64,000 bases of DNA from Candidatus Omnitrophota bacterium (GTDB taxonomy: Bacteria; Omnitrophota; Omnitrophia; Omnitrophales; Aquincolibacteriaceae): assembly GCA_030698625.1 (NCBI GenBank), contig JAUYMS010000040.1, positions 21,499-85,498 on the forward strand, read 5' to 3'. Made by a program: the position numbers and the translations under genes. Numbering within the stretch: the first letter of the stretch is position 1; the number at the start of each line of letters is the position of its first letter. Under the pieces are notes generated by a model. That model saw only the letters and a program-made list of their open reading frames with translations, made no database searches and was not told the DNA's origin. Below are positions 3,001-23,676 of the stretch, piece by piece.

Positions 3001-4629
3001 GCCCTCATCGAATTCGACCAAGCCAATGACCAATCACTTGACGATATTACTATCGAGGCGCTAGTGCGTGAGTTAAATGCACGAGGCGGGCAACATCGAT
3101 TGCTGCAAACGGCACGCACCCCCGGAGAACTCACCGAATGGGTCGAAGATATTACCACAGCGGTGATTGCGGCGGGCCGCGACAATGGCTTCAGCCCCTT
3201 TGATGATGCCTACGGCTTAGGCGAAGAAGATTTTAGAGTCTTTTGGGAGCAAATCTTTACGGGGTTACAGCGACTAAACTTGCGCACATTAATCGCGGAA
3301 ATCGTCCGCTTTGAAGCCTATACCGGCAATGAACTCCCGGATGAAGCGATCGAAGCTATTATCGCGGGCGCCAATGACCGGAACGGGCGGCTTTTCGTAC
3401 TTGAGCAAATTCTTGATGAACGGGGACTCGGACGCGCGGCGCAGAACGCCAAGCGCGATGTGAAACGGGCCCGGCTTAAGCGTCCGAACACAGACATGCG
3501 TTCCGAACTGAGGAGTGCCGTATTCGATAAGGATGAGCTCGACAGCATGTTCTTTGAAATGCAATACGGCACGGATCAGGGTTTCCTTAGTACGTACAAG
3601 CTGACAGATGCGGATGGCCTGATATTGAGACTGCTGGCTTTGCACGGAGACAAGCTCGACTGGTTTAGCGGAACTATCGAGGTTGTTCGCGGGCCTGTCA
3701 AAAAGGCGGGAGACAACATGTTCCTGCATCTTGATCTTGAGGAGATATTGCGGGAATTCACATTTCAGATAAACGGGAAGAACTCTCACTTCCTTCTGCG
3801 TCAGAGGGGTGAGAAATTTGACGTTGTTTTGAGAGAATCGCTGGTGAACTCTTTCTTGAATGGTTACGCGGCGGGTGACGTGACCGTCGTCGAGGCCTTG
3901 GCCGGCGCTCTTAATGTGGAGGGAACCGAAGCTGCCATTGCGAAGCGTCGATCAGCCCTCATTGAAAGTGCGCAATACGCCAACACCTTGTTCCGGGATC
4001 TTGTGCCGCATATGCGCGCGCGCACTCCCGAGAACCTTGGTGCCGAGCGCTACATGATCGTCTCACAAGACGTTGTGGCTAAGAATATGGGGTTTGCCCG
4101 TACGGCGCGCTTCCTGGCGGGTATGGGCTATCGCCTCTTTGTGCGGCTGAATGAGATGCCTCAGAATGAGCAGGCGATTGAGAACTTCCTTTCTATATAT
4201 CATCTCGAGGGGCTGGCGCGGGAAGACTTCATAACGCCTGTCTACGGTAACGCGGTACAAGTAACAGCGCAGATGCACCGCGCCGGTGTGCGATATCAAT
4301 TGACAGCAGAGAACCTGATCACACTAGGGTTCGATAGCGACGGACTCGCGAATGAATTTGCAGAATACAGCCACCTGGTCTTGGGCGATGAGATATTGGG
4401 CAAACGCCGCGATGCTCGTGCCGATGCACCCACGGCTTTAATCGCGGCATTAATTCTAGAGGCGCCCGTAAAAATCAGAGAACTCGGAGAGGAAATTGTT
4501 ACGGTTACGGATGCAACCCGCCGTTGGGACTTGCACCAATCCCCGGTGGCCTTCGACATGTCGGAGTTTCTGGCCGATGAGGTCGAAAACTATCATCGTT
4601 TGGCAAAGGCTCTCAGCGCTTCGGCGTAA
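1..4629 (+). CDS. Giant acidic hypothetical protein, 5'-partial (more than 1524 aa; the reading frame is open back to window position 1)
   Basis: 4.6-kb uninterrupted ORF. The track start at 55 is a TTG, and the same frame has no stop back to nt 1, so the N-terminus lies upstream of the window. D/E-rich. I see no Walker A, radical-SAM, GT or other motif. Confidence 0.55.
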   Translation: MKALQFKPAGETGKDANVLRFDEAVYDPAARANWQNLLVNLRATLKAVNENFDEQLSRTAGAEDEHYHPLRLTDARPVRVLQNFLSQYSDRINQVETARLFIFLFSRYPNVSVGRVRELLFPGGERDPIETGEVEPPSVDPAPRIPGDDTGAPAEDTGDADAERSALVRAKIPPEAVEITAALNIDQRDADAKEQMEQVVRELGAKHRVSDEYSMRVLKVKVQEFNNLVTHYIPENDGPRQVYLESHDEGNLEIAFHRDPLEGPNALVPLGFHMHRRGAGGIGTESWTFPLGDPTNLVGVHIVPEPDYNGHRNIYLHFRELTPPMMEVIREFARALAYLEKRRSIHTKDGVIQIETLYTTWHILADKTPVWNPESRRPDFTVTEGFSQALTKALKKQKDTWKRTENKNSYAKYVPEDRGLEEGKGHFEVMKDSWHDAQLFLPGLFFDFTKTESATRFGATPDSGILKWEVRKEDIRGVSLKRTDAGKERLELYFDADEFETYRIAALAGKDYDGRSYDRTKTAEHTEIDENGVITVTSDDGDEIVFIFNQSHTPRSDRRLAPVRRGGPLLTTPDELRRVLAPFEGFRAAADLLEIEPSFEYGQLKMKHRLGIPPQVGATIVAENGNVVGGELMLIQDARAGEIVGPAIHTQGFKGIRVRVDADPETGIQHKVIEFHFSGYVLPSTEDLVKIRTHAAFKQALLLKGQFREDVHYEILAGNDVEFLNTLRGNAEPRGNESVSPASQALVGDRLASEAEPAGEPREESPPSALEQRELRAVFVAGRFDEFLERENSPKLLTGQQVLKALHKFVRSTEYEIELEEAEAILKHLNDSYAAYQLETKILSAEAQIESEWAPTFTEALGGNALFTRLRTLDFSATLDGLKKFLSAFRGAGEGIIQVEDIANFEVFTGKVLSVEVINEIAAYVNTEGGFTLDAQFADDELDDFARELKETLQDGRPIRQKLLVYLDSQDEYGENVTGTWPGPNDQGTFRAYTVTQLIAALIEFDQANDQSLDDITIEALVRELNARGGQHRLLQTARTPGELTEWVEDITTAVIAAGRDNGFSPFDDAYGLGEEDFRVFWEQIFTGLQRLNLRTLIAEIVRFEAYTGNELPDEAIEAIIAGANDRNGRLFVLEQILDERGLGRAAQNAKRDVKRARLKRPNTDMRSELRSAVFDKDELDSMFFEMQYGTDQGFLSTYKLTDADGLILRLLALHGDKLDWFSGTIEVVRGPVKKAGDNMFLHLDLEEILREFTFQINGKNSHFLLRQRGEKFDVVLRESLVNSFLNGYAAGDVTVVEALAGALNVEGTEAAIAKRRSALIESAQYANTLFRDLVPHMRARTPENLGAERYMIVSQDVVAKNMGFARTARFLAGMGYRLFVRLNEMPQNEQAIENFLSIYHLEGLAREDFITPVYGNAVQVTAQMHRAGVRYQLTAENLITLGFDSDGLANEFAEYSHLVLGDEILGKRRDARADAPTALIAALILEAPVKIRELGEEIVTVTDATRRWDLHQSPVAFDMSEFLADEVENYHRLAKALSASA

Positions 4630-6391: not shown

Positions 6392-6492
6392 GGCGCAATT
6401 CCTTTCATATATTCTCAGTTTTAACTGTGAATCTAACTCTCCAAAGGGGTTGTCCTCAAAGCATTTATAGCTTAAAATGGGCGCTTGCTGCA

Positions 6493-6519
6493 CATGTAGT
6501 CAAGTCGAGACTTGACCCC
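6493..6519 (+). repeat. REP-like hairpin element, copy 1 (catgtaGTCAAGTcgagACTTGACccc)
   Basis: 7-bp stem GTCAAGT/ACTTGAC with a 4-nt loop. The same 27-mer recurs at 15747, 22142 and inverted at 21080. Confidence 0.6.
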
Positions 6520-6532
6520 TTCGAAAGGATGT

Positions 6533-7633
6533 ATGAAGAAAGCGCTGATCACGGGTGTTACGGGGCAGGACGGGAGCTATCTGGCGGAATTTCTGCTCAG
6601 TATGGGCTATGAGGTTCATGGCTTAAACCGGCGGTCGAGTTCTATTAATACGCAGCGCATTGCGCATCTGATAGATGAAGAGGACACCACCAATGAGCGG
6701 TTCTTTCTTCACCACGGTGACCTCGGCGATTCAGGAAAGCTCCTCGATCTTGTCCATAATGTAAAGCCCGATGAGATTTATCATCTCGGGGCACAGAGCC
6801 ACGTCAAAGTCAGCTTTGAAATTCCGGAGTACACCCTCGATGCCAATATCCTGGGCACGGTGAGGTTGCTCGAAGCGGTACGGCGCAGCGGCCTCCAGAC
6901 AAAGATTTATCAGGCATCGTCCAGTGAAATGTTTGGAAGCACCCCGCCGCCGCAGAATGAACAAAGCCCTTTTCATCCCCGTAGTCCCTACGCCGTCTCC
7001 AAAGTTGCGGCGTACTGGATCATGGTGAACTATCGCGAAAGTTACGGCATGTTTGCCTCCAACGGAATTCTTTTTAACCATGAGTCTCCGCGCAGGGGAG
7101 AAACCTTCATCACCCGAAAGATTACCCGCGCCGTAGCCCGCATCAAAAAAGGGCTTCAAAAGAAACTCTATCTGGGAAACCTGGAAGCACGCCGCGACTG
7201 GGGCTTTGCTCCCGAGTATGTCGAAGGCATGTGGCGTATCCTGCAGTTGGACAAGCCCGATGACTTTGTCATAGGCTCCGGTGAGACGCACAGCGTGCGC
7301 GAATTCGCGGAGGCTGCCTTTTCTTACGCGGACATGGATTGGCAGGAGTACGTCGAGGTGGATCCGCGGTATTTTCGCCCGGCCGAGGTGAACAACCTCG
7401 CCACCGAAATGGCAAAGGCGCGGGACATGCTGCATTGGCAGCCGCGCATCAAGTTTCAGGATCTCGTTAAAATTATGGTCGACTACGACCTTGAGTCTCT
7501 TGGACTTACTGCCAAGGGCGAGGGCAAAAAAGTCCTCCGGAAAAAGATGCTCTGGCTTTCTGAAAAACAAAAGTTTGAAATCTTCCAAAAGGATCTCGAA
7601 GAGGCGCTCTCGACACACAAGAGAAAGTCTTAA
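6533..7633 (+). CDS. gmd: GDP-mannose 4,6-dehydratase
   Basis: [22 protein letters not shown], a YAVSK catalytic Y/K, ~366 aa. RBS aaagga sits 7 nt upstream of the ATG at 6533. The track start at 6512 is probably too far upstream. Confidence 0.9.
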
Positions 7634-13500: not shown

Positions 13501-14606
13501 TCGAATCCGGCACGTTCGTGCAACAACTCAAGAATGAAGGTTTTCGTTTTTTTACGGGCGTGCCTTGTTCCTTCTTTCAATCTGCGATCAACGCTGTGGT
13601 TGACGACAAGTCTTTGAAGTATGTCACCGTACCAAACGAAGGCGCGGCCTTGGCTGCGGCATCGGGCGCCATACTTGCCGGAGAACCCGCTGTAGTCCTA
13701 ATTCAGAACTCCGGTTTTGGCAATTTGATCAACCCGCTGACATCGCTGAATATGATTTATGGGCTGGGTGTTCTTATATTTATCAGCGGGCGCGCCTATG
13801 GCGTCGCCGATGAACCGCAACACGAAATTATCGGTAAGTCTATGGCAGGAATGCTCGACGCGATGGGTGTTGCTTTCGAAGACCTGCCTTCCGAGCCCGA
13901 GGCGCTACGGTCTGCTTTGGGACGTGCGCACCTGTGGATCCGGAACGAAAAGCAGCCCTTTGTTTTCTTTGTGCGCAAGGACACCCTTTTGGAATACGCC
14001 GGGCCATCCGGCAAAGACGTCTACCCGCTAAAACGAATTGATGCCATAAAGATCATTGCGGAATCGATAGGGGACAATGACTATGTCGTTGCGACCACGG
14101 GCAAGCCGTCACGCGAACTCTTCAAGATCAAGGATAGGGTCCGCAATTTTTACATGCAGGGTTCCATGGGGCATGCGGCGGCAATTGGTTTGGGGGCTGC
14201 ACTCAGTCGTCCGGATGAGAGGATTATCGTCCTGGACGGTGACGGCGCCATTTTGATGCACCTCGGTATCCTCTCTTCGATTGGGCATTACCGGCCAAAG
14301 AACTTCTATCATATTGTTCTCGACAACGAGGCTTACGAATCAACGGGCGGCCAAGATACGACCTCTGCCTCCTCCGATTTGTGCGCTGTGGCGCATGCAT
14401 GCGGCTATGTTTGGACTAAAGAAACGTCTACAGCAGATGAGTTAAAGCGCAGCCTTGAAGAGCTCAAAGGAATTGAAGGGCCGTGTTTTTTAAGAGTTAA
14501 GATCAACCGTATTGCTACACCCGATGTCCCGCGCATATCGGGAAAGCACAGTTCACGTGATATCGCCTCGCATTTCTCCGAAGAACTGGCCAGGGGGCGC
14601 ACTTGA
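13497..14606 (+). CDS. ppd: Phosphonopyruvate decarboxylase (ThDP-dependent)
   Basis: 369 aa. ThDP motif LDGDGAILMHLG...NEAYESTGGQ. ATGA overlap with pepM. pepM-ppd synteny is canonical. Confidence 0.8.
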   Translation: MIESGTFVQQLKNEGFRFFTGVPCSFFQSAINAVVDDKSLKYVTVPNEGAALAAASGAILAGEPAVVLIQNSGFGNLINPLTSLNMIYGLGVLIFISGRAYGVADEPQHEIIGKSMAGMLDAMGVAFEDLPSEPEALRSALGRAHLWIRNEKQPFVFFVRKDTLLEYAGPSGKDVYPLKRIDAIKIIAESIGDNDYVVATTGKPSRELFKIKDRVRNFYMQGSMGHAAAIGLGAALSRPDERIIVLDGDGAILMHLGILSSIGHYRPKNFYHIVLDNEAYESTGGQDTTSASSDLCAVAHACGYVWTKETSTADELKRSLEELKGIEGPCFLRVKINRIATPDVPRISGKHSSRDIASHFSEELARGRT

Positions 14607-15739
14607 GTTGCGCTTACTGGAATCCTACGCGCCGTCTCATAGAAGAAGGTGCCCTCGACAAACTGGCTGAAGAACTATCAGCTTCCGGTGCCGCAAAGGT
14701 ATTGGTCGTGCTCGGCGAAAAATCATTTCGTAAGTCGATTCGCTACACAAAACTGCGCGATACGTTGGAACACTTTTCCCTTGTCGAATCTGAGCCCGTC
14801 GTCAAAGACCCTTCACTGGTATTCGCACAGTCATTTGCCGAAAAGTATCGCGGCAAGGCTATTGATAGCGTCGTGGCAATTGGCGGGGGCAGCGTCATGG
14901 ATATGGCGAAACTGACGGCGCTCCTGCTCAATCAGCCGGATGACACGTGGAACACTTTTTGGCGTGATCCGGTGGTACCGATTGAGTTTCCAAATGCGTC
15001 ACTCCCGCTCGTCGCGGTTCCTACAACGGCGGGCACGGGGAGCGAAGTCACTCAATACGCCTCTTTTGAGGATCACCAGCATCAAAAGATGAGCTTTGCT
15101 CACCCTTATCTTTTCCCAAAGCTTGCGCTCGTGGATCCTGAATTGGCCGTTTCGATGCCGCCTGCGATTACGGCCTCGACAGGATTTGACGCACTATCGC
15201 AAGCGATCGAGGCCTATTGGTCCATCCATCATATGCCTTCCTCAGACACCCATGCACTGCGGGCTATCCCGTTGGTTTTAGAACAGCTTCAGCGTGCCGT
15301 CGAAAAACCTGCCGATAGGGATGCTCGTTTCGCCATGGCAATTGCAGGCAACGAGGGGGGCCTAGCCATCGCACAGACACGGACGACAGCAGTTCATTCG
15401 GTTTCTTATCCCATGACGACGATATTTCACGTGCCGCATGGCCACGCTTGCGCCTTGACGCTTGCCTCATTCGTACGGTTCAACCAGGATGCGATTGAGC
15501 ACGAGCGAGCCGCCGCACTTTGGAGAGCTCTCGGGGCGGAGAACGCTGAAATGGCCGCTAAGCACATTGAGGGCCTTATGGATAATGTCGGACTCGAGCG
15601 CCGACTGAGTCAAGTAGGCATTGATGAGGAAGGACTGGAGTCCATTGTAAAATATGGGTTTAGACCGGATCGTGTAAAGAATAACCCAAGAGAACTCAAT
15701 GCCTCTCAATTAAGAACAATGCTTGTGGAAATTCTTTGA
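14603..15739 (+). CDS. Iron-containing alcohol dehydrogenase (phosphonoacetaldehyde reductase candidate, FomC/PhpC-like)
   Basis: Fe-ADH family: GGGSVMDMAKL. Positioned directly after ppd. TTG start overlaps the ppd stop. Confidence 0.7.
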   Translation: MSCAYWNPTRRLIEEGALDKLAEELSASGAAKVLVVLGEKSFRKSIRYTKLRDTLEHFSLVESEPVVKDPSLVFAQSFAEKYRGKAIDSVVAIGGGSVMDMAKLTALLLNQPDDTWNTFWRDPVVPIEFPNASLPLVAVPTTAGTGSEVTQYASFEDHQHQKMSFAHPYLFPKLALVDPELAVSMPPAITASTGFDALSQAIEAYWSIHHMPSSDTHALRAIPLVLEQLQRAVEKPADRDARFAMAIAGNEGGLAIAQTRTTAVHSVSYPMTTIFHVPHGHACALTLASFVRFNQDAIEHERAAALWRALGAENAEMAAKHIEGLMDNVGLERRLSQVGIDEEGLESIVKYGFRPDRVKNNPRELNASQLRTMLVEIL

Positions 15740-15746
15740 CGCGAAA

Positions 15747-15773
15747 CATGTCTTCAAGTCGAGACTTGACCCC
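15747..15773 (+). repeat. REP-like hairpin element, copy 2
   Basis: catgtcttcaagtcgagacttgacccc, 8 nt after the ADH stop. Identical to the copy at 22142. Confidence 0.6.
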
Positions 15774-15838: not shown

Positions 15839-17377
15839 ATGACTAAGAGCGCTGAAAAACCTACGATTTGCCTGATTATACCCCCGTCGATTTTTCTGTT
15901 GGACGAGCGGGTCTTCATTAGCGTCGGCATTCTCAAGATTGCGGCGGTTCTAGAGAGGGAACATTACCCTGTGGACGTGCTAGACCTCTCGGGCGTTGAA
16001 AACTATGAAGCCGTTATTGAAGACCACATTAATAACAGCCCGGCCCGAATCTTTGGCGTTACGTCGACAACCCCGCAAATGCCGGCTACCGCGAGAATCG
16101 CAAGGCTAATTCGTAAGCTCGTTCCTGAAGGCAGATTGATTCTTGGCGGACCTCACGCAACGTTGGTCCATTCTGCTTTCAAGAAGGAAAGCATCGAAGG
16201 GAAAAAGGGGCGGGGAACAGTTGCTATGGATAGCATTCTAGCACTCTATGACGTTGCCGTAGTCGGTGACGGTGAAGACGCCATCTTTGAAGCCATTGCT
16301 GAAAATCCGTCGCAGATCGTGGACGCAAATGACCGCACATCCAGGCTTTTTTTGACTAACCAAAGATATGACAGCCTTCCGTTTCCCGCGCGCCATCTCA
16401 TCGATATCGACAGCTATCATTATTTTATAGAGGGACATCGCACGACAAGCCTTATTGCTCAGCTTGGCTGCCCCTTTGAATGCGGTTTCTGCGGGGGACG
16501 GCAATCGCCGATGTTGAGAAATATCCGTATGCGCAGTATGGACAGCATCATTGAAGAGATGCGGCACATCCATGTCACCTACGGGCATACCGGATTCATG
16601 TTTCACGATGACGAACTTAATGTGAATCCGAAAATGATCGAGCTTATGACCAAAATCGTTGACCTGCAAAAGGAACTCGGGGTTGATTTTCGGCTTCGCG
16701 GGTTTGTTAAAGCGGAACTCTTCAATGACCGGCAGGCGGAAGTGATGATGAAGGCCGGTTTCCGCTGGCTCCTGACCGGTTTTGAATCGGGAGACCGCAG
16801 GATCTTGACGAATATTAACAAAAAGGCGACCCGTGAAGACAATTCGCGCGCCGTACAGATCGCCAAAAAACAGGGCCTTAAAGTTAAAGCGCTTATGTCT
16901 ATCGGGCATCCCGGCGAAAGCGAAGAGTCCGTCATGGCCACACGCGACTGGCTACTTGAAGCAGAACCGGAGGATTTTGACGTCACCATTATTACCACTT
17001 ATCCGGGCACGCCTTATTATGATTTTGCCGTACCGCATCCGGAAAAACATGGGATCTGGGTCTACACCTACAAGAAAACAGGGGACAAGCTCTACAGCCT
17101 TGAAGTCGATTACAATGAAGTAGCCGATTACTACAAAGGAGATCCTGACGGCGGCTATAAATCGTATGTGTATACCGACCACTTGAGTCAGAATGACCTG
17201 GTCGATTTGCGTGATTTTGTAGAAAGAGATGTTCGGGATCGCCTTGAAATTCCTTTCTACGCTGGTTCGCCCAGCATCCGCTATGAGCACTCTATGGGCC
17301 AATTCGGCAAACAGCTCCCGCCCAATATCCTAAGGCGTTCCGGCGGGGGTGCCCATGAAAAGCTGCCCGTCAGTTAG
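15839..17377 (+). CDS. Cobalamin-binding radical SAM protein (512 aa; Fom3-like methyltransferase candidate)
   Basis: N-terminal B12-binding-like region (FGVTSTTP...ILGGPHA), then GCPFECGFCGG (CxxxCxxC). Size matches class B radical-SAM methyltransferases. Confidence 0.8.
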   Translation: MTKSAEKPTICLIIPPSIFLLDERVFISVGILKIAAVLEREHYPVDVLDLSGVENYEAVIEDHINNSPARIFGVTSTTPQMPATARIARLIRKLVPEGRLILGGPHATLVHSAFKKESIEGKKGRGTVAMDSILALYDVAVVGDGEDAIFEAIAENPSQIVDANDRTSRLFLTNQRYDSLPFPARHLIDIDSYHYFIEGHRTTSLIAQLGCPFECGFCGGRQSPMLRNIRMRSMDSIIEEMRHIHVTYGHTGFMFHDDELNVNPKMIELMTKIVDLQKELGVDFRLRGFVKAELFNDRQAEVMMKAGFRWLLTGFESGDRRILTNINKKATREDNSRAVQIAKKQGLKVKALMSIGHPGESEESVMATRDWLLEAEPEDFDVTIITTYPGTPYYDFAVPHPEKHGIWVYTYKKTGDKLYSLEVDYNEVADYYKGDPDGGYKSYVYTDHLSQNDLVDLRDFVERDVRDRLEIPFYAGSPSIRYEHSMGQFGKQLPPNILRRSGGGAHEKLPVS

Positions 17378-17388
17378 AATCTGCGACC

Positions 17389-18345
17389 GTGTTCCTGATT
17401 GATTCTTACATCCGAGACCGCCTTGTAAGAAAGGTGCGTGCAAAGAAAGAAAAAATCGCCCGTTTGGGAACTCCCTATACAGAGAATCCCAAAGTTTCAG
17501 CGGTTGTCACCTCGTACAATCACAGGGCCAACATCAAGCCGATTCTCGAAGCTTACAGAGCCGCAGACCTTGAGGAATTGATCGTTTGCGAAGATGGTTC
17601 CCTCGACGGCTCCCGCGACGAATGGCTCAAGCATCTGCTTAGGCCGAATGATTTCCTGATTGTCTCCAACGAACTGAATGAACTTCGGATCTACAATCGC
17701 GCCATCAGTCTCGCTCGCGGAGAAATAGTGATCGTCAATCAGGACGACGATATTCCCCCCCAAGACGCAAGTTGGATTCGTGATGCGGTACGCCTTTTCG
17801 ACAAGTATCCGCGGTTGGCGATTTTGGGTGCGTTGGAGGGCGCTCAACAGCCAATCTTTACCCTCGACAATTACTACCGCGTCAAATCTCTGGCTGAGCG
17901 TCTCGGGCAGGCAAAATTCAGAATACCCCGTAAAGAGATACAACATCGCGATCCCGAACTCGGAGTCGGTTTTATGTTCATCGATGTCGTCAATAACGGG
18001 CCGCTGATCTTCCGCAGACAGGCTTATCTCGAACTCGGAGGCCTGGATACGTCTCGTAGTAAGGCAGGGGAATCCATGATGTTTATGGATTACGATCTTT
18101 GTTATCGTGCTTGGCTTGCCGGTTGGCAGGTGGGGCTCTATGAGCACGCTCCGTTTGTGACCAATGCGGGCCAGCGAGCCTCGGTTCTTTTTGCCCATGG
18201 GGATCGTAAGAAGCGCGGGAAGGAAACTCGCGAATACCTGAATCAAGCTTATTCACACGTCTATGAGGATGTCGGGAGCCGGGCACGTCGGTTGAACGAG
18301 GAGTTTCTCACCTTGGCTGATCACAAAGAAACGGTGAATAGTTGA
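17389..18345 (+). CDS. GT-A fold glycosyltransferase (GT2-like)
   Basis: VVTSYNH...CEDGSLDGS...NQDDD. Paralog of the ORF at 28811. GTG start. Confidence 0.6.
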   Translation: MFLIDSYIRDRLVRKVRAKKEKIARLGTPYTENPKVSAVVTSYNHRANIKPILEAYRAADLEELIVCEDGSLDGSRDEWLKHLLRPNDFLIVSNELNELRIYNRAISLARGEIVIVNQDDDIPPQDASWIRDAVRLFDKYPRLAILGALEGAQQPIFTLDNYYRVKSLAERLGQAKFRIPRKEIQHRDPELGVGFMFIDVVNNGPLIFRRQAYLELGGLDTSRSKAGESMMFMDYDLCYRAWLAGWQVGLYEHAPFVTNAGQRASVLFAHGDRKKRGKETREYLNQAYSHVYEDVGSRARRLNEEFLTLADHKETVNS

Positions 18346-19691
18346 AACCTACGGTTCAGAGGAATGTCTCGGTTGTTGGGCTCGGAAAGCTCGGGTTTCC
18401 GTTCTCTGTTTGTCTTGCCAATAAGGGATTTAACGTCTGGGCCGTCGACAACGATGCCGTAAAATTACGCACCCTCAAGGCTGGGCATTCGATGCAGTAT
18501 GAACCGGGCTTGCGGGCGTTATGGCACAAGTCACGCAAGCGGGTGCACCTCACCGCAGATTACGCGGAAGCGATAGCGAATACTAATATTACATTCGTGG
18601 TAGTTCCTACCCCGAGCAAGAAGGACGGCAGCTTTACATCCCGTTATGTTCTGGACGCCTGCCGCAAAATCGGAAAAGTCCTGAAGGATAAAAAACGTTT
18701 TCATTTAGTCGTCATCACAAGCACCGTGGTTCCGGGCACGGTGGACACGAAAATCCGGTCTGCTCTCGAGGCCGAATCCCGCAAGAAGTGCGGTGCCGGA
18801 TTCGGCCTTTGCTACAATCCGGAGTTTATCGCATTAGGCAGCGTCATCCACGACCTGTACCACCCCGATTTCGTTCTCATCGGCGAGTCTGACAAAAAGT
18901 CGGGGGACCTTCTGTCTACCGTGTACGCGAAATTCTGCGGGAAGCATGTCCCGCTTGCCAGAATGAACTTCAGTAATGCGGAGCTGACAAAACTGACGCT
19001 GAATGCCTTCGTCACAATGAAGATATCCTACGCCAATATGATTAAACAGTTCTGCGAGGGACTTCCCGGCGGAAATGTGGATGTGGTGACCGGTGCCCTC
19101 GGACTCGACAGGCGCATCGGCTCCCGCTACTTGAAGGGCGGCCTCGGCTACGGGGGCCCATGCTTCCCAAGAGACAATCTGGCATTACTGCATACGGCCC
19201 ATAAGATGTCTGTGAGGGGGAGTCTTCCGGAGGCCACGCACGAATTCAACAAACGTGAGATTCACCGCCTAGCCAAGCTTGTGATCGAAAAGCTGCCGCG
19301 AGGAGGCAAGGTCGGAATTCTGGGTCTTTCTTACAAGCCGAACACGAATGTTGCCGATGAAGCCCAGGGCGTTTTGCTGGCACGTTTTCTGGCGCGCAAA
19401 CGTATTCCCGTAATTGTGTATGACCCCGTAGCCACCGATAACGCCCGTAAATTACTCACATCAAGAGTTGAATTTGCCTCATCAAAGGCCGAATGCTTGT
19501 CGCAGGCAGATATCGCTGTCATCACGACTCCGTGGGAAAGATTCAAGCGCTTGAGGGGCACGGACTTTAAGCGATCAAAGCGCAAGCCGATCGTGATTGA
19601 TTGCTGGCGTATTCTGGACACCGCCAAGCTCCGGAACCATGTGGAGTACTTGCCGCTCGGCGTCGGGCGAGAAATAACGGTTCACACATAG
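18342..19691 (+). CDS. NDP-sugar 6-dehydrogenase (UDP-glucose/GDP-mannose dehydrogenase family)
   Basis: VVGLGKLG Rossmann motif. Catalytic-Cys motif GYGGPCFPRDN (cf. GGSCFPKD). 449 aa. Confidence 0.8.
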   Translation: MKPTVQRNVSVVGLGKLGFPFSVCLANKGFNVWAVDNDAVKLRTLKAGHSMQYEPGLRALWHKSRKRVHLTADYAEAIANTNITFVVVPTPSKKDGSFTSRYVLDACRKIGKVLKDKKRFHLVVITSTVVPGTVDTKIRSALEAESRKKCGAGFGLCYNPEFIALGSVIHDLYHPDFVLIGESDKKSGDLLSTVYAKFCGKHVPLARMNFSNAELTKLTLNAFVTMKISYANMIKQFCEGLPGGNVDVVTGALGLDRRIGSRYLKGGLGYGGPCFPRDNLALLHTAHKMSVRGSLPEATHEFNKREIHRLAKLVIEKLPRGGKVGILGLSYKPNTNVADEAQGVLLARFLARKRIPVIVYDPVATDNARKLLTSRVEFASSKAECLSQADIAVITTPWERFKRLRGTDFKRSKRKPIVIDCWRILDTAKLRNHVEYLPLGVGREITVHT

Positions 19692-19692
19692 A

Positions 19693-20427
19693 ATGAACGC
19701 ACATGATCCGCTTTACATTTTCTTTCATATTCACAAAACAGCGGGCACAACGTTTGCGATGCATTTGCAGGAAAATCTGGCCGGGGATGAACGCCTAGCT
19801 GTTTATCTGAAATCGGTTGAAGTGGATGCCTTTAATGATTCGCTTGCGCAAATGCCACCGGCTCAAAAGGGTAGACTAAAAGTAATTTACGGGCATCGGG
19901 TCTACGACGGTATTCATAAACATTTTAACCGCGAGGCCCGGTATTTCACTTTTCTCCGCGACCCCGTCGCCCGCACCCTTTCACACTACAATGGGCAGAT
20001 GCAGTTACTGGAGAAACGACACTATAAGAAGACCCCGGGCTTACCCTTCCGGCCCCAACCTTTTAAAGAATGGCTCTTCTCGGACACATCGCAGTGGAAT
20101 GCAATGGCCCAGGAACTCATCCGAGTCTTTTTACAAACGCATGTAGTCCGTGAAGAAATGAACGAGACACATCTCAATACGGCAAAAGGAGTCCTCGACC
20201 GGTTCTTTTTTGTGGGAGCTACGGAGCATTACGAGGAAGATGCGTCTTATTTGTATAATCTGATGGGAATCACCAAGTTTGTGCCTGATTGCCGAGTCAC
20301 CCTAAAATCGTACTACGAGGGGGATCCGGAGGAGGCCAGGCAATGGATACGGCAGAAAGCCCCCCTAGATGTCGCCTTATACTCCCACGCCCTCCGGCTC
20401 AGGCGCAGGAGCCAAGTCACAACTTGA
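19693..20427 (+). CDS. Sulfotransferase (PAPS-dependent)
   Basis: 5'-PSB HIHKTAGTT and 3'-PB RDPVARTLSHY. Paralog of the ORF at 43439. Confidence 0.7.
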   Translation: MNAHDPLYIFFHIHKTAGTTFAMHLQENLAGDERLAVYLKSVEVDAFNDSLAQMPPAQKGRLKVIYGHRVYDGIHKHFNREARYFTFLRDPVARTLSHYNGQMQLLEKRHYKKTPGLPFRPQPFKEWLFSDTSQWNAMAQELIRVFLQTHVVREEMNETHLNTAKGVLDRFFFVGATEHYEEDASYLYNLMGITKFVPDCRVTLKSYYEGDPEEARQWIRQKAPLDVALYSHALRLRRRSQVTT

Positions 20428-20613
20428 ATATCATGCCTGCCATATCACATTTCCCGGTGGGCGCCATGAACAATTCTTGAATTCAACCATATTCCCAGGA
20501 TAGGCCCTCTTGATAAACCGTAGGGCGCGGCGAACATCGCCTTGCGACGTGTTGTCGAAATAAGCCTTACCGTCACAAGCAACGATTCTTATATTCGCAC
20601 TCATGTAAGTCGT

Positions 20614-20964
20614 CTATGAAATTAGAATCGAGATACTCCTTACAACGACGGCTTCCTTGCTTCTGTCGAATAAGCTGCAAATCAGGGAGTAGTACAAAAG
20701 GTTCCAAGACGGATAACCGATAGTGAGGCCGGTCTTTTTTACGGCACCCTCAATACTGCTGACACCTTTCTCCTGATCTGACAGATAGGAGTTGGGTAAT
20801 AATTCATGCCGATAATCAAAGACTCTTTTCTGCTTGTCGTTCGTTCCGCAATAATGCTGTTTGCTAATCATAAGATATTTGATGGCATTTAAAGGATAGA
20901 GGCAGGCGGGCAGAACCGTACCCCAGAGGAACTTAGGCAGACCCTTTGCCACGTTGATTTCCAC
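20614..20964 (-). CDS. Hypothetical ORF in a low-GC scar; possible gene remnant
   Basis: 116-aa ORF with no motif. A 57-aa ORF (MSANIRIVACDGKAYFDN...) follows on the same strand at 20604-20434. The region is AT-richer than the flanks and adjoins the RAYT. Confidence 0.2.
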   Translation of the reverse strand: MEINVAKGLPKFLWGTVLPACLYPLNAIKYLMISKQHYCGTNDKQKRVFDYRHELLPNSYLSDQEKGVSSIEGAVKKTGLTIGYPSWNLLYYSLICSLFDRSKEAVVVRSISILIS

Positions 20965-21059
20965 CAGTGATTTAATCCTTATATCTCATATTATGAATAA
21001 CGCGCGTGATAGCGCAGATTCTAATCAATTATGTCATTTTAGCCATCATTTAGTTGCCG

Positions 21060-21085
21060 GGGCTAAGGGGTCGGGCTAAGGGGTC
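21060..21085. repeat. 13-bp perfect tandem duplication GGGCTAAGGGGTC x2 abutting the inverted REP
   Basis: gggctaaggggtc gggctaaggggtc, read directly. The second copy runs into the REP stem. Confidence 0.5.
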
Positions 21086-21106
21086 AAGTCTCGACTTGAC
21101 TACATG
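21080..21106 (-). repeat. REP-like hairpin element, copy 3 (inverted orientation)
   Basis: ggggtcaagtctcgacttgactacatg is the reverse complement of the 6493 copy. It lies 70 nt upstream of the RAYT start. Confidence 0.6.
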
Positions 21107-21177
21107 TTGTTTCCTGCGTATCATGATATCTTCGTAACATCATTCCACAACGTAACATAACCTCTATTCACCAGCTC

Positions 21178-22164
21178 ATGGCTCGTCCACTCCGTATTGA
21201 ATTCGAAAATGCCTGGTATCACGTTATGAACCGGGGCCGGAATCACATGGACATCTTCCGGGGTGAGCACGATTACCGCGTATTTCTTGAGATTCTGACG
21301 GAGGCATGCGGCCTCTTTAACGTACAGATTGCGTCTTACTGCTTGATGTCCAATCATTACCATCTGCTGATTCATACCCCTGAGGCAAATCTTTCGCGTT
21401 TTATGCGGCATATCGACGGGGTCTATACGCAGAAATACAACCGGTCTTATCAAAAAGACGGATCTTTGTTTAAGGGGCGTTACCGTGCCGTTGTATTACA
21501 GGTTGAAAGCTATCTGTTGCGCGTCATGCGTTACATCCATCTGAATCCGGTGCAGGCGCGCATTGTCCATGATCCTACAGATTATCCCTGGTCGAGTCAT
21601 CGCGACTATATTTCAGTCAACGGCCACCCGAGTTGGCTGCTTGTAGGTTTTATCCTTAATCAATTCTCTTCGCAATCGCACCTAGCCGCAGAAGCTTACA
21701 ATCAATTCATTACGGCAGGCATTGACAGTGAGACAGAGAAATTTTACTCGCAGGTAAAACTAAAACCAATTTATGCGGATGCCACGCGAACGGCGGAAAT
21801 TAAAGAAAAGTATCTCGCTCCAAATACCCGTGAGGTGGCTGAAATCCCTGAGAGACGCAAGATCCGCGGAGAGCAAATGGCGAGCCATATCCTGCGGGCA
21901 GTTTCACAAAACTTCAGCGTAGCAGCTGCCGGCATCAAGTCATCACGGCGAGGTAAGGAAAACCTGCCGCGTCAGATGGCGATCGCCCTTGCAAGGGAGC
22001 TTTCAGGAATGACGCATCGCCAAATCGCCGATTTTTTTAATATTAACTCCTACAAAACCGTCAATAAACATTGCGATCGCTTTGCGAGCAAGATTCGCGT
22101 CAGCGACGAACTGAGTGAACAGTACAAGCAACTGAGATCAACATGTCTTCAAGTCGAGACTTGA
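21178..22164 (+). CDS. IS200/IS605-like Y1 (HuH) transposase, REP-associated (RAYT-type), with C-terminal DnaA-C-like HTH
   Basis: HuH motif SNHYHLLIH, then YIHLNPV...YPWSS (catalytic Y region). The C-terminal ~100 aa (MAIALARELSGMTHRQIADFFN...NKHCDRF) resembles the DnaA C-terminal DNA-binding domain. Confidence 0.75.
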   Translation: MARPLRIEFENAWYHVMNRGRNHMDIFRGEHDYRVFLEILTEACGLFNVQIASYCLMSNHYHLLIHTPEANLSRFMRHIDGVYTQKYNRSYQKDGSLFKGRYRAVVLQVESYLLRVMRYIHLNPVQARIVHDPTDYPWSSHRDYISVNGHPSWLLVGFILNQFSSQSHLAAEAYNQFITAGIDSETEKFYSQVKLKPIYADATRTAEIKEKYLAPNTREVAEIPERRKIRGEQMASHILRAVSQNFSVAAAGIKSSRRGKENLPRQMAIALARELSGMTHRQIADFFNINSYKTVNKHCDRFASKIRVSDELSEQYKQLRSTCLQVET

Positions 22165-22168
22165 CCCC
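22142..22168 (+). repeat. REP-like hairpin element, copy 4
   Basis: catgtcttcaagtcgagacttgacccc. It overlaps the last codons and stop of the RAYT. Confidence 0.6.
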
Positions 22169-22918
22169 ATGGACCTAACGCGGGTAAAGAAGGGGATTAA
22201 TGATATTGTTTTTCGGTGGCTGATACGGCCGCATGTCAAGAGGTTGGTGAAGTACAGTCTCAAGGATCAGCGGAAGCACTTCCTTAAGGACAGGAAGATG
22301 CATGAGCTGCTCAAGACCCGGCTTGAGTCAATTGACCTTGAGGAGCAGCTCTTCAAGGACGCCAAGCCTTGCGGCAAGCGATTTGAACTGCTTTCGCGTG
22401 CCGTGGAGCAGGCCAAACGCTTTGACGGCGGGGAGCTCTGGCTTGAGTTCGGGGTCGAGGCTGGCGCATCCATTAATCACATTGCAGGCGAAGTGCAATC
22501 GACGGTCTACGGATTTGACACCTTCACGGGTCTTCCTGAGGCATGGAAGACAGGCCTCTATCATCATGCGCGAAAGGGTAAGCGCAGTCTTGATGCCGTA
22601 CTGCCGAAGGTGGCGTCGAACGTTGAGTTGATTCCGGGGCTGTTTGAAGACACCTTACAGCCGTTCTTAGAAAAGCATGCGGAGCCCGTCGCTTTTGTCC
22701 ATATCGATTGTGACTTATACAGTTCAACAAAAACAGTGTTTCGTCAATTAAAGCTGCAAGTCGGGAGCGTGATCGCCTTCGATGAGTATTACAACTACCC
22801 AAATTGGAGAGAGGGGGAATACAAAGCCTTCCATGAGTTCTTGGCCGAAAGCCAGATGACAGCGAAGTGCCTCGGTTTTTGTCCGCGATCGGGACAGGCG
22901 GCGTTTATCCTATGCTAA
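22169..22918 (+). CDS. TylF/MycF-family SAM O-methyltransferase
   Basis: LEFGVEAG...YGFDTFTGLPE...VHIDCDLYSST...FDEY. First of a tandem pair. Confidence 0.7.
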   Translation: MDLTRVKKGINDIVFRWLIRPHVKRLVKYSLKDQRKHFLKDRKMHELLKTRLESIDLEEQLFKDAKPCGKRFELLSRAVEQAKRFDGGELWLEFGVEAGASINHIAGEVQSTVYGFDTFTGLPEAWKTGLYHHARKGKRSLDAVLPKVASNVELIPGLFEDTLQPFLEKHAEPVAFVHIDCDLYSSTKTVFRQLKLQVGSVIAFDEYYNYPNWREGEYKAFHEFLAESQMTAKCLGFCPRSGQAAFILC

Positions 22919-23676
22919 GTAAAATTTTACCGAGTTCAGTGAAACGATGGTTTCATGATTTTGTGTTCAGGATCGTCCGTTCCAATTCAAGGCGTATCGT
23001 CAAGTATATCCTTGAGGACCGCCACATCCAGGAGCAGCTCAAGGCCCGACTGGAATCCATTGAGCGCGAGGATGAATTGTTTGGTGATGGGGTAATTTTC
23101 AAGAACCGCACAGGCCTTATTGAGCATGCGCTGAAACAAGTACCCGAGAGATTACGAAACGGGCTTTACCTGGAGTTTGGTGTAGCCAACGGAAAATCCG
23201 TAAACCTCATCGCGAGGAATATTCAGACGAGGGTCTATGGTTTTGATTCCTTTGAGGGACTTCCCGAGAAGTGGGTCACCGGCAAGTACAGCAGTGCGGT
23301 CCAGGGAAAACACAACCGCAACAAAACATTGCCTAAAGTGGAGCTCAATGTCGAACTCGTTCGCGGATGGTTCCACGACACTGTCCCCGGTTTCTTGCGC
23401 GACCACCCGGGTCCTGTGGCGTTTGTGCATGTCGATAGCGACCTTTATGAATCAGCGCGATACATTTTCTCACAACTAAAATTAGAAAACGAGACCGTGA
23501 TCGTTTTCGACGAGTACTTCAACTTCCCGGCCTGGAAAGAGGGCGAATATAAGGCCTTTCAAGATTTTCTGACGGCACGCGGAGCAACCGCTCGATGCAT
23601 TGGCTACTGTCCGCGAAGTCAGCAGGCGGCTTTTGTGCTCTCACTTAATTCCGAAGGAGCTCCGGCTTTTGCATAG
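22912..23676 (+). CDS. TylF/MycF-family SAM O-methyltransferase (tandem paralog)
   Basis: LEFGVANG...YGFDSFEGLPE...VHVDSDLYES...FDEY. ATG at 22912 overlaps the upstream stop (ATGCTAA). Confidence 0.7.
   Translation: MLSKILPSSVKRWFHDFVFRIVRSNSRRIVKYILEDRHIQEQLKARLESIEREDELFGDGVIFKNRTGLIEHALKQVPERLRNGLYLEFGVANGKSVNLIARNIQTRVYGFDSFEGLPEKWVTGKYSSAVQGKHNRNKTLPKVELNVELVRGWFHDTVPGFLRDHPGPVAFVHVDSDLYESARYIFSQLKLENETVIVFDEYFNFPAWKEGEYKAFQDFLTARGATARCIGYCPRSQQAAFVLSLNSEGAPAFA

Follow-up and report, generated by a model that had tools for sequence, protein, structure and literature searches.

The most abundant short repeats of bacterial genomes are attributed to RAYT-type Y1/HUH enzymes, which would both create and maintain them, and a REP is defined as a hairpin whose 5' foot carries the tetranucleotide GT[AG]G. 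To our knowledge, the E. coli RAYT is the only one studied biochemically, and we know of no substrate for the HTH-bearing subclass (2.1/TIRYT) beyond an 8-nt motif. The E. coli enzyme nicks ssDNA beside REPs, forming a 5'-phosphotyrosine, and a nick-primed extension model has been proposed for BIME amplification (PMC3333891). The HTH-bearing class was named TIRYT or 'TIRtron' by Di Nocera, De Gregorio and Rocco in 2013 (PMC3733652) and TnpA-Y1 subclass 2.1.2 by Quentin, Siguier, Chandler and Fichant in 2018 (PMC6006769). TIRYT proteins have a RAYT-like Y1 domain, are longer than canonical RAYTs and carry a C-terminal Bac_DnaA_C-like (or HTH_23/28) domain; their genes are flanked by TIRs with the outer motif GGGGWSAS, and some genomes have these TIRs singly, as dimers or in groups (PMC3733652, PMC6006769). 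An internal consensus of the TIRs is absent from both publications (PMC3733652, PMC6006769), and Quentin et al. found no REP-like sequences for subclass 2.1, including 2.1.2 (PMC6006769).

We analysed a 64-kb window, the whole stretch of DNA considered here, from the MAG of an uncultured Candidatus Omnitrophota bacterium and compared it with a family set of ~75 related units and 29 genome loci. The window contains a 1,089-bp unit (21080-22168, ~1.09 kb; Table 1) that is probably a 'TIRtron/REPtron': a Y1/HUH ssDNA nuclease-ligase with a DnaA-domain-IV-like HTH, bounded by cognate 28-bp inverted repeats and acting by the mechanism proposed below. Its architecture and TIR motif point to TnpA-Y1 subclass 2.1.2 (TIRYT/'TIRtron'), a known, uncharacterised class. 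The kind of element has thus been described already, and the region adds one further member; relatives of its protein make up >7,700 protein clusters at E ≤ 1e-3.

Table 1. Features of the unit and its orphan arms (positions in the window).
Feature	Position	Strand	Basis or remark
Tandem duplication, GGGCTAAGGGGTC twice	21060-21072 and 21073-21085		Perfect, 13 bp
Left arm (TIR/REP-like)	21080-21107	-	28-mer match and inverted repeat
Sigma-70-like promoter of the transposase gene	21096-21124	+	10/12 matches
Transposase CDS, 328 aa, MDP3920777.1	21178-22164	+	PF01797 and PF08299
Coding region of the DnaA-domain-IV-like HTH (aa 237-321)	21886-22140	+	Pfam, 1J1V, Foldseek
Right arm	22141-22168	+	28-mer match; carries the stop of the gene
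Orphan arm, left-arm type (GTAG, 7-bp stem)	6492-6519	+	Spacer upstream of gmd
Orphan arm, right-arm type (GTCT, 6-bp stem)	15746-15773	+	Spacer between Fe-ADH and B12/radical-SAM genes

A sequence-only reading of this DNA had described a hairpin repeat in four copies, two of them inverted around a HuH Y1 gene. A search for the 28-mer ACATGTNNTCAAGTCGAGACTTGACCCC bore this out, with exactly four matches in the window (Table 1) and none in 100 dinucleotide-preserving shuffles; these four, within the 64-kb window, are the arms countable for the source genome. The two copies that bracket the transposase ORF lie in a 37-nt inverted repeat (21073-21109 versus 22139-22175, 86% complementary). The left arm and the orphan at 6492 have GTAG-G and a 7-bp stem, the right arm and the orphan at 15746 GTCT-T and a 6-bp stem. 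On the + strand, the left arm reads GGGG-GTCAAGT(stem)-CTCG-ACTTGAC(stem)-TACATGT, which is ACATGTAG-hairpin-CCCC on the - strand; the right arm reads ACATGTCT-TCAAGT-CGAG-ACTTGA-CCCC. As ssDNA, the arm hairpins are of modest stability (-3.4 to -5.4 kcal/mol, the left arm at -5.4). The outer ends, GGGGTCAA, fit the published GGGGWSAS at 7 of 8 positions.

The arms are shared by the family. In most of the ~75 related metagenomic units, inverted repeats of the form GGGGTCAA[G/A]TCT...TTGAC occupy the same positions, and the family-wide arm consensus is GTCAA-N5-AGA-Y-TTGACCCC. The GTAG tag is found in two of the four window copies, the other two having GTCT, and in all arms of one related cluster (L019); family-wide, this position holds TGTAG or A[A/T]GAG. 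Stem covariation was not significant (pair 6-13 was Watson-Crick in 46 of 103 sequences, with 40.8 expected), and thus the palindrome could be the duplex binding site of a dimer rather than an ssDNA hairpin. Both orphans sit in intergenic spacers, as had been claimed, one of them (15746) 7 nt past the Fe-ADH gene (14603-15739) and the other (6492) immediately before the gene for GDP-mannose 4,6-dehydratase (6512-7633). Further motif matches at 20411, 22999, 50668 and 59133 occur outside any AGA/CCCC context and agree with chance expectation.

The promoter and the 3' end of the transposase gene overlap the arms. A -35 box, TTGACT (21096-21101), lies inside the left arm and is followed after a 17-nt spacer by a -10 box, TATCAT (21119-21124); no other promoter-like site was found in 20400-22400. 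In the family as a whole, TGnTAnnnT comes 17 nt after TTGACT and in most relatives stands as the -10 with the ATG at +1, which suggests that their transposase mRNA is leaderless. At the other end, the last seven codons and the stop of the gene lie within the right arm, which encodes C-L-Q-V-E-T and the stop TGA (22162-22164); the arm of most related units extends 4 nt past the stop. Coding by the right arm explains the conserved protein tail, C-x-Q-x-x-[T/I]-stop, which is nearly invariant across the family. Elsewhere, the gene-poor 650 bp at 20428-21079 showed no homology to any locus compared, its 116-aa ORF had no Pfam or PHROG match, and no known RNA family was matched in the window (Rfam). 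The best homologue of the neighbouring UDP-glucose dehydrogenase in the genome collection is only 58% identical, and thus the collection contains no close relative genome.

Profile searches recovered both domains that had been read from the protein, the HuH/Y1 transposase and the DnaA-C-like C-terminus. Residues 10-121 form the Y1/HUH nuclease domain (PF01797 Y1_Tnp, E 4e-15, above the Pfam gathering score), with the HuH motif at H60-Y61-H62 and Y119, within RYIHLNP, as the candidate catalytic tyrosine; H60, Y61, H62, Y119, H121, N123 and P124 were invariant in a 20-sequence alignment. A helical linker (residues 140-235) precedes the DnaA-domain-IV-like HTH (residues 237-321; PF08299 Bac_DnaA_C, E 4e-10, 40.1 bits against a cut-off of 31.5), which also matched PDB 1J1V by sequence (E 7e-6 as a single protein, 3e-11 as a profile). 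In the AF2 model (pLDDT 87), the C-terminus aligned with the DnaA domain IV of 1J1V at TM 0.86 and rmsd 1.6 A (Foldseek). The best PDB match of the model was 4ER8, the complex of E. coli TnpA_REP with a REP hairpin (TM 0.73), and IS608/ISDra2 TnpA were further structural matches.

The protein scored 68.7 bits with the curated RAYT model NF047646 (REP_Tyr_transpos), under the cut-off of 80, and this was still its best NCBIfam match. The RAYT identity given by the sequence-only reading therefore needs adjusting: a RAYT-like Y1 domain with inverted repeats is present, but the score is below the cut-off for canonical RAYTs and the protein appears to belong to the longer, HTH-bearing subclass 2.1.2. 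It is 42-45% identical to six other proteins with identical arms, which are 56-87% identical among themselves; because its identity to these same-arm proteins is low, its specificity for the cognate arms is assumed here.

How does the unit compare with known systems? With TIRYTs it has in common a long Y1 protein, a C-terminal HTH and TIRs with GGGGWSAS-type ends, and it differs in that its TIRs contain a conserved palindrome, GTCAA N8 TTGAC. Like canonical RAYT/REPtrons (E. coli TnpA_REP/YafM, 4ER8; Pseudomonas RAYTs), it combines a Y1/HUH fold, closest in structure to 4ER8, with a gene placed between inverted hairpin repeats (at least two inverted REPs) and a GTAG tag in half of the window's copies; as in RAYT systems with REPINs, the same repeats are scattered between genes, both singly and as inverted doublets. 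Since GTAG stands at the foot of the palindrome in this sub-lineage, a GTAG-bearing arm would fit the definition of a short canonical REP, two of the four window copies having GTCT. In contrast to canonical RAYTs, the protein is twice as long, adds a dsDNA-type HTH and stays below the NCBIfam RAYT cut-off. The arms differ from classical REPs in being short (5-7-bp stem) and in their invariant GGGG/CCCC outer tail, and whereas classical REPs are lineage-specific, these arms are conserved across ~40%-identical proteins and across phyla.

The HUH/Y1 core, the end hairpins and the lack of a flanking target-site duplication are shared with IS200/IS605 (IS608, ISDra2 TnpA). The end hairpins of those elements are however direct, without TIRs, and their TnpA has ~130-150 aa and no HTH, whereas here the arms are inverted, the protein has 328 aa and tnpB is absent. 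We rejected membership in IS200/IS605 on protein length, arm orientation and the NF033573 (IS200 model) score, 23.7 bits under a cut-off of 55. The C-terminus shares its fold with DnaA domain IV (1J1V) and keeps the equivalents of the minor-groove arginine R399 and of R407 as R258 and R265, but the protein lacks the AAA+ domain and domains I-III, and SYKTVNK stands in place of the recognition helix DHTTVLH. Membership in DnaA was likewise rejected (TIGR00362, 43.9 bits under a cut-off of 343.9, the match being confined to model positions 345-435), as was a likeness of the arms to the DnaA box TTATCCACA, since at most 5-6 of 9 positions agree by eye and the recognition-helix residues differ.

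In related genomes, the exact arm 20-mer was found at 29 loci in ~12 MAGs, and a single related MAG (JAHJCZ01) has 30 exact arm copies on 8 contigs; these copies and the two orphans in the window show that the arms are dispersed. Solitary arms and MITE/REPIN-like arm doublets are scattered with sharp boundaries through other Omnitrophota MAGs, and doublets with 99% identical bodies were found in unrelated flanks.

A perfect 13-bp tandem duplication had been noted next to the upstream repeat. It is present at 21060-21085 and does more than adjoin the left arm: on the - strand it reads GACCCCTTAGCCC twice, each copy comprising the outermost 6 nt of the arm and 7 nt of outside flank. This duplication is one case of a family-wide feature and not incidental. 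Of the 208 distinct arms examined in related loci, 32 (15%) have (T)GACCCC and 4-12 nt of flank duplicated in tandem on their outer side; the inner side shows this in 1 of 208, and random positions in 1.0%. Their start points cluster at CT^T^GAC, phase -1 fitting 20 of 25 duplications and the window's own copy requiring phase 0; as the start points are not unique, a single precise nick cannot account for all of them. E. coli-like C^T cleavage (phase -2) fits 8 of 25, against 20 of 25 for phase -1, and was not adopted. The arm-end duplications may be read as nicking footprints. In the literature searched, we found no earlier description of the stop codon in an arm, the -35 box in an arm with a leaderless layout, MITE-like doublets in Omnitrophota or terminal tandem duplications; these previously unreported marks in the relatives hint at the mode of DNA cutting.

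What could the mechanism be? The HTH would bind the invariant duplex GGGGTCAAGTCT, and the Y1 domain would nick the C-rich strand near CT^TGACCCC, forming a 5'-phosphotyrosine link. Strand transfer could then place arms, doublets and perhaps even the entire unit at new positions between genes, by copying or by moving them, and would have seeded the orphans at 6492 and 15746. Binding to the left arm may also repress the transposase gene's own promoter. After the nick, a polymerase would extend the 3'-OH by ~8-18 nt and the enzyme would rejoin the displaced strand, leaving (T)GACCCC plus flank in tandem; the 13-bp duplication would be such a by-product of nicking. Where the nick falls in TIRYTs, which strand is cut and what the HTH does are all our inferences. 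A bolder proposal, which we put forward only tentatively, is that the footprints (a nick at CT^TGACCCC on the C-rich strand, then extend-and-rejoin), together with the -35 box in the arm, the leaderless ATG, the C-terminus encoded by the arm and the exact GGGG...CCCC contig ends, define an unrecognised IS-like family.

It is possible, if rather unlikely, that the whole 1,089-bp unit is itself an autonomous IS of unrecognised type (Y1 transposase plus TIRs), the orphans and doublets being decay or internal-deletion products (solo ends, MITEs) instead of what a domesticated RAYT, present in single copy, primarily acts on. The compact arrangement, in which the left arm contains the -35 box and the right arm the stop codon, resembles that of an IS; in one related locus (L004), a full unit interrupts another TIRYT gene just past its HuH motif, and the full unit's asymmetric inner flanks, CTACATGTT...AAGGTGTAG, are retained in the doublets. 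One 1,041-bp Logan contig (L112) spans exactly GGGG to CCCC, implying that ends sharing at least 31 nt occur in at least two genomic contexts in its sample; these ends suggest a mobile boundary 6-7 nt outside the proposed nick and count against the explanation that we consider best. Many homologue contigs are 1,039-1,090 bp long, but the excess at ~1.04 kb is partly a selection effect, as the list holds only full-gene contigs. Identical arms in MAGs labelled Desantisbacteria and Planctomycetales suggest horizontal spread; however, there were no relatives on viral contigs (IMG/VR) and plasmid relatives are distant (≤44% identity, mostly N-terminal only), and phage carriage was rejected on these grounds. 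In addition, each sampled MAG has one full gene with these arms beside many arm-only copies, which is the pattern of a RAYT with its REPINs, and the window has no second copy of the transposase gene.

The duplications could also stem from replication slippage, polymerase stalling at the hairpin or fill-in of staggered breaks instead of Y1 nicking, although we doubt it. Hairpins are known obstacles to replication, the start points spread over ~5 nt (-4 to +1) and not over one phosphodiester bond, and some ends carry 3-5 iterated copies (L100, L092), as in microsatellite expansion. Such an origin sits poorly with duplications that are one-sided despite a symmetric core palindrome, with hairpins as weak as -3 to -5 kcal/mol and with unit boundaries free of visible microhomology, the window's unit being followed by CGG and not GAC. 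That the repeats are immobile and serve as operators or terminators, their hairpins being bound by a regulator of the HTH type and the Y1 domain being a relic, seems to us very improbable: the HuH and Tyr motifs do not vary among thousands of homologues, near-identical doublets lie in unrelated flanks, one MAG alone has 30 exact copies and the hairpins are followed by CCCC(TT) and not by a T-tract. An operator would nonetheless suit the overlap of the left arm with the -35 box, and the hairpin structure lacks covariation support; the orphans point the same way as the genes beside them and lie in intergenic spacers, where mRNA 3' ends could be stabilised by a hairpin.

The locus and its relatives supply a precise, strongly conserved putative DNA partner, a candidate nick site and a promoter/operator arrangement, as well as evidence that arm-only derivatives exist in the candidate phylum Omnitrophota, for which genetic data are few. 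For annotation, they explain a recurrent cause of metagenome assembly breaks. If the IS-like family is real, it would consist of Y1-transposase elements with true TIRs and a DnaA-type duplex-binding domain. If the duplications are indeed nicking footprints, they would provide the first mechanistic handle on a subclass of >7,700 protein clusters.

We searched the window for the hairpin repeat ACATGTNNTCAAGTCGAGACTTGACCCC and found exactly four matches (see the table), compared with none in 100 dinucleotide-preserving shuffles; the four-copy repeat claimed by the sequence-only reading is thus real. Alignment of the copies gave 27 invariant columns, 26 of them inside the 28-nt pattern, and the two N positions of the pattern differ. 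In the arms at 6492 and 21080 the sequence is GTAG-G and the stem 7 bp long, in those at 15746 and 22141 GTCT-T and 6 bp; folded as ssDNA, the hairpins are of modest stability (-3.4 to -5.4 kcal/mol). As had been proposed, two inverted copies bracket a HuH Y1 transposase gene, forming a 37-nt repeat (86% complementary) around the ORF, and the orphan copies indeed occupy spacers next to the Fe-alcohol-dehydrogenase and GDP-mannose 4,6-dehydratase genes. The 13-bp tandem duplication reported beside the upstream arm is perfect (21060-21085, GGGCTAAGGGGTC twice) and also includes the outermost 6 nt of that arm.

Features of the window and of the remnant cluster at locus L004 (positions in the respective sequence)
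Feature	Position	Strand	Remark
Orphan arm	6492	+	just before GDP-mannose 4,6-dehydratase gene
GDP-mannose 4,6-dehydratase	6512-7633		
Fe-ADH	14603-15739		
Orphan arm	15746	+	7 nt after Fe-alcohol-dehydrogenase gene
B12-binding radical SAM	15839-17377		
UDP-glucose/GDP-mannose dehydrogenase	18342-19691		
Sulfotransferase	19693-20427		
Left arm	21080-21107	-	
Y1 transposase ORF	21178-22164		328 aa
Right arm	22141-22168	+	
Two TylF-like methyltransferases	22169-22918, 22867-23676		
Arm doublet, 71 bp, then C-terminal half of second TIRYT gene	L004 269-727 (gene half)		
Third TIRYT gene	L004 2308-2526		first 73 codons, cut off by left arm of complete unit
Complete unit	L004 2513-3611		

Around the unit extends a long cluster of glycan or secondary-metabolite genes, most of them in one orientation (window 5500-30000 and beyond), and nearly all large ORFs at 11.8-51.6 kb are on the + strand. 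From the sulfotransferase gene to the left arm, ~630 bp (20428-21059) are poor in genes and have a slightly reduced GC content (0.479 for 20001-22000). Their sole ORF (20614-20964, -, 116 aa) had no Pfam or PHROG match, and the segment showed no similarity to any of the related loci compared. On the other side, the right arm's CCCC end runs straight into the first ATG (22169) of the methyltransferase ORF downstream; judged from the sequence, the second in-frame ATG at 22210, with AAGAAGGGGA just before it, looks the more likely start.

Two Pfam domains scored above their gathering thresholds in the 328-aa product, Y1_Tnp (E 4e-15) and Bac_DnaA_C (E 4e-10), the second of which bears out the proposed DnaA-C-like tail. 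Its best NCBIfam model was REP_Tyr_transpos (68.7 bits, below the cut-off of 80); the IS200 score (23.7, cut-off 55) and the DnaA score (43.9, cut-off 343.9) fell far below threshold. H60-Y61-H62 and Y119-x-H-x-N-P are invariant in an alignment of 20 members. The top structural match of an AlphaFold model (pLDDT 87) was E. coli TnpA_REP with bound REP hairpin (4ER8, TM 0.73), followed by IS608 and ISDra2 TnpA, and its C-terminus resembles DnaA domain IV (1J1V, TM 0.86, rmsd 1.6 Å). In the 1J1V alignment, the equivalents of DnaA R399 and R407 are retained as R258 and R265. SYKTVNK stands in place of the base-reading helix DHTTVLH, so the DNA target is expected to differ from the DnaA box. The exact protein is NCBI MDP3920777.1, on a 135-kb contig of a Candidatus Omnitrophota MAG; a search of 5.8 billion clusters found no relative closer than 49% identity. 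The family is nonetheless very large (>7,700 matches), most members being ~328 aa with both domains.

Quentin et al. 2018 (PMC6006769) assigned Y1 proteins with a Bac_DnaA_C-like tail to subclass 2.1.2, reported no REP-like sequences near the genes after automatic and manual searches, and treated the subclass as the same group as the TIRYTs of Di Nocera et al. 2013. The latter authors described 'TIRtrons', RAYT-like genes between terminal inverted repeats with a common GGGGWSAS, some of whose repeats occur as singles, dimers or groups (PMC3733652). The outer ends of the window unit, GGGGTCAA, match GGGGWSAS at 7/8 positions, and from this match and the domains the locus belongs to this named, biochemically unstudied class. 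The window locus is therefore a new Omnitrophota member of the TIRYT/subclass-2.1.2 kind, and the earlier interpretation is supported with refinements.

Scanning GTDB species representatives with TCAAGTCGAGACTTGACCCC yielded 29 loci in ~12 MAGs, mostly Omnitrophota, the rest labelled Desantisbacteria, Planctomycetales or unclassified; a metagenome scan added 80 loci. Six of the 29 are full units with the identical 20-mer in their arms, and their proteins are 42-45% identical to the window protein and 56-87% among themselves. Most related units compared (~75 in total) carry inverted repeats GGGGTCAA[G/A]TCT...TTGAC, and the arm consensus, with CCCC at the 3′ end, is (W-G-K-A)GTCAA-N-NNN-AGA-Y-TTGACCCC-TT. 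A covariation test gave no support for the arm stem. The full unit may itself be an IS or may be a domesticated single-copy gene; the collection searched contained no close relative genome. The window unit shares identical 20-nt arm cores with L019, L017, L004, L016, L007 and L021 despite 42-45% protein identity, and its protein resembles this cluster no more closely than it does proteins whose arm loops differ. In the cluster, AACATGTAG is paired with AAGGTGTAG; the window unit has the 'AACATGT' inner-flank type at both arms. Either arm capture or rapid protein divergence may account for this. At L113 (ENA ERZ26222911 contig), family member P0044 adjoins several DDE transposase genes (IS66-type, DDE_Tnp_1) in an IS-rich region.

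The right arm is coding: in the sub-lineage of the window, TGT-AGT-CAA-GTC-GAG-ACT-TGA is read as C-S-Q-V-E-T-stop, which explains why the C-x-Q-x-x-[T/I] tail is nearly invariant in an otherwise variable C-terminus. The distance from the stop codon to the end of the arm is 4 nt in most units. The left arm provides a -35 box, TTGACT, with the ATG 28-31 nt (mode 29) past it in 47/58 units. Among 25 distinct sequences with 29-nt spacing, T-G at 21-22, T-A at 24-25 and T at 29 are conserved, forming an extended -10 (TGnTAnnnT) at 17-nt spacing. Because the A of the ATG falls at the expected start site, the transposase mRNA of these units is probably leaderless. The window unit has TTGACT, 17 nt and TATCAT (10/12 matches, the sole promoter-like site in 20400-22400); its distance to the ATG is longer, 76 nt.

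Arms also occur without the gene. MAG JAHJCZ01 holds 30 exact arm copies on 8 contigs, many as (-,+) doublets, inverted arms with no gene between, of 50-181 bp with the full unit's asymmetric inner flanks, CTACATGTT...AAGGTGTAG, preserved. Two doublet pairs are 99% identical inside and have unrelated flanks. Four loci carry 24-nt 'double-foot' palindromes, GGGG-TCAAGTCTCGACTTGA-CCCC (L006 7940-7963, L018 543-566, L024 554-577, L025 4591-4614), which may be excision scars, since they could be left behind when a doublet or unit undergoes recombination or deletion between its two hairpins. L004 (JAJDCB010000016.1, Omnitrophota MAG) is a cluster of TIRYT remnants at 150-3611, in which a full unit is inserted in another TIRYT gene directly after the HuH motif. 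A 1,041-bp Logan contig spans exactly GGGG to CCCC and thus marks the ends of a repeated unit. The sole other record of the exact window gene, L001 (Logan SRR13727534, window 21079-22166), is a 1,088-bp unitig broken inside both arms, as fits arms that have ~30 nt in common with the orphans and thereby split the de Bruijn graph. In the family, ~1.04-1.09-kb contigs probably arise repeatedly through such arms.

What is the mechanism of arm dispersal? Alongside the observed architecture, conservation and dispersal, we infer steps in which the HTH would bind the 12-mer duplex that is invariant at the arm tip and, at the left arm, repress the promoter of its own gene. Close to CT^TGACCCC, the Y1 domain would nick the C-rich strand and then become linked to the 5′ phosphate, a 5′-phosphotyrosine linkage being established for HUH/Y1 enzymes. 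Strand transfer would then move or copy arms, doublets and perhaps whole units. Against this nick position, the GGGG/CCCC contig boundary lies 6-7 nt outside it.

The 13-bp duplication proved systematic in the family: at 32/208 distinct arms, (T)GACCCC together with 4-12 nt of the flank outside the arm recurs in tandem, in units of 8-18 nt, as compared with 1/208 arms on the inner side and 1.0% of random positions in the same loci. At some arm ends there are 3-5 copies, and in some units both ends are affected. Such duplications could arise as a side reaction, if the 3′-OH at the nick were extended by a few nt and the displaced enzyme-bound strand rejoined; E. coli TnpA_REP cleaves at C^T, and a related nick-primed extension was proposed as its way of amplifying BIMEs (Ton-Hoang et al. 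2012, PMC3333891). Start points concentrate within CT^T^GAC, phase -1 being compatible with 20/25 perfect duplications and phase 0 with 13/25. They scatter over ~5 nt. Replication slippage or fill-in repair is a possible alternative to nick-primed extension.

In the literature searched, we found no report of the arm consensus, the arm-encoded C-terminus, the arm-embedded promoter or the one-sided terminal duplications. These four family-level regularities are testable.
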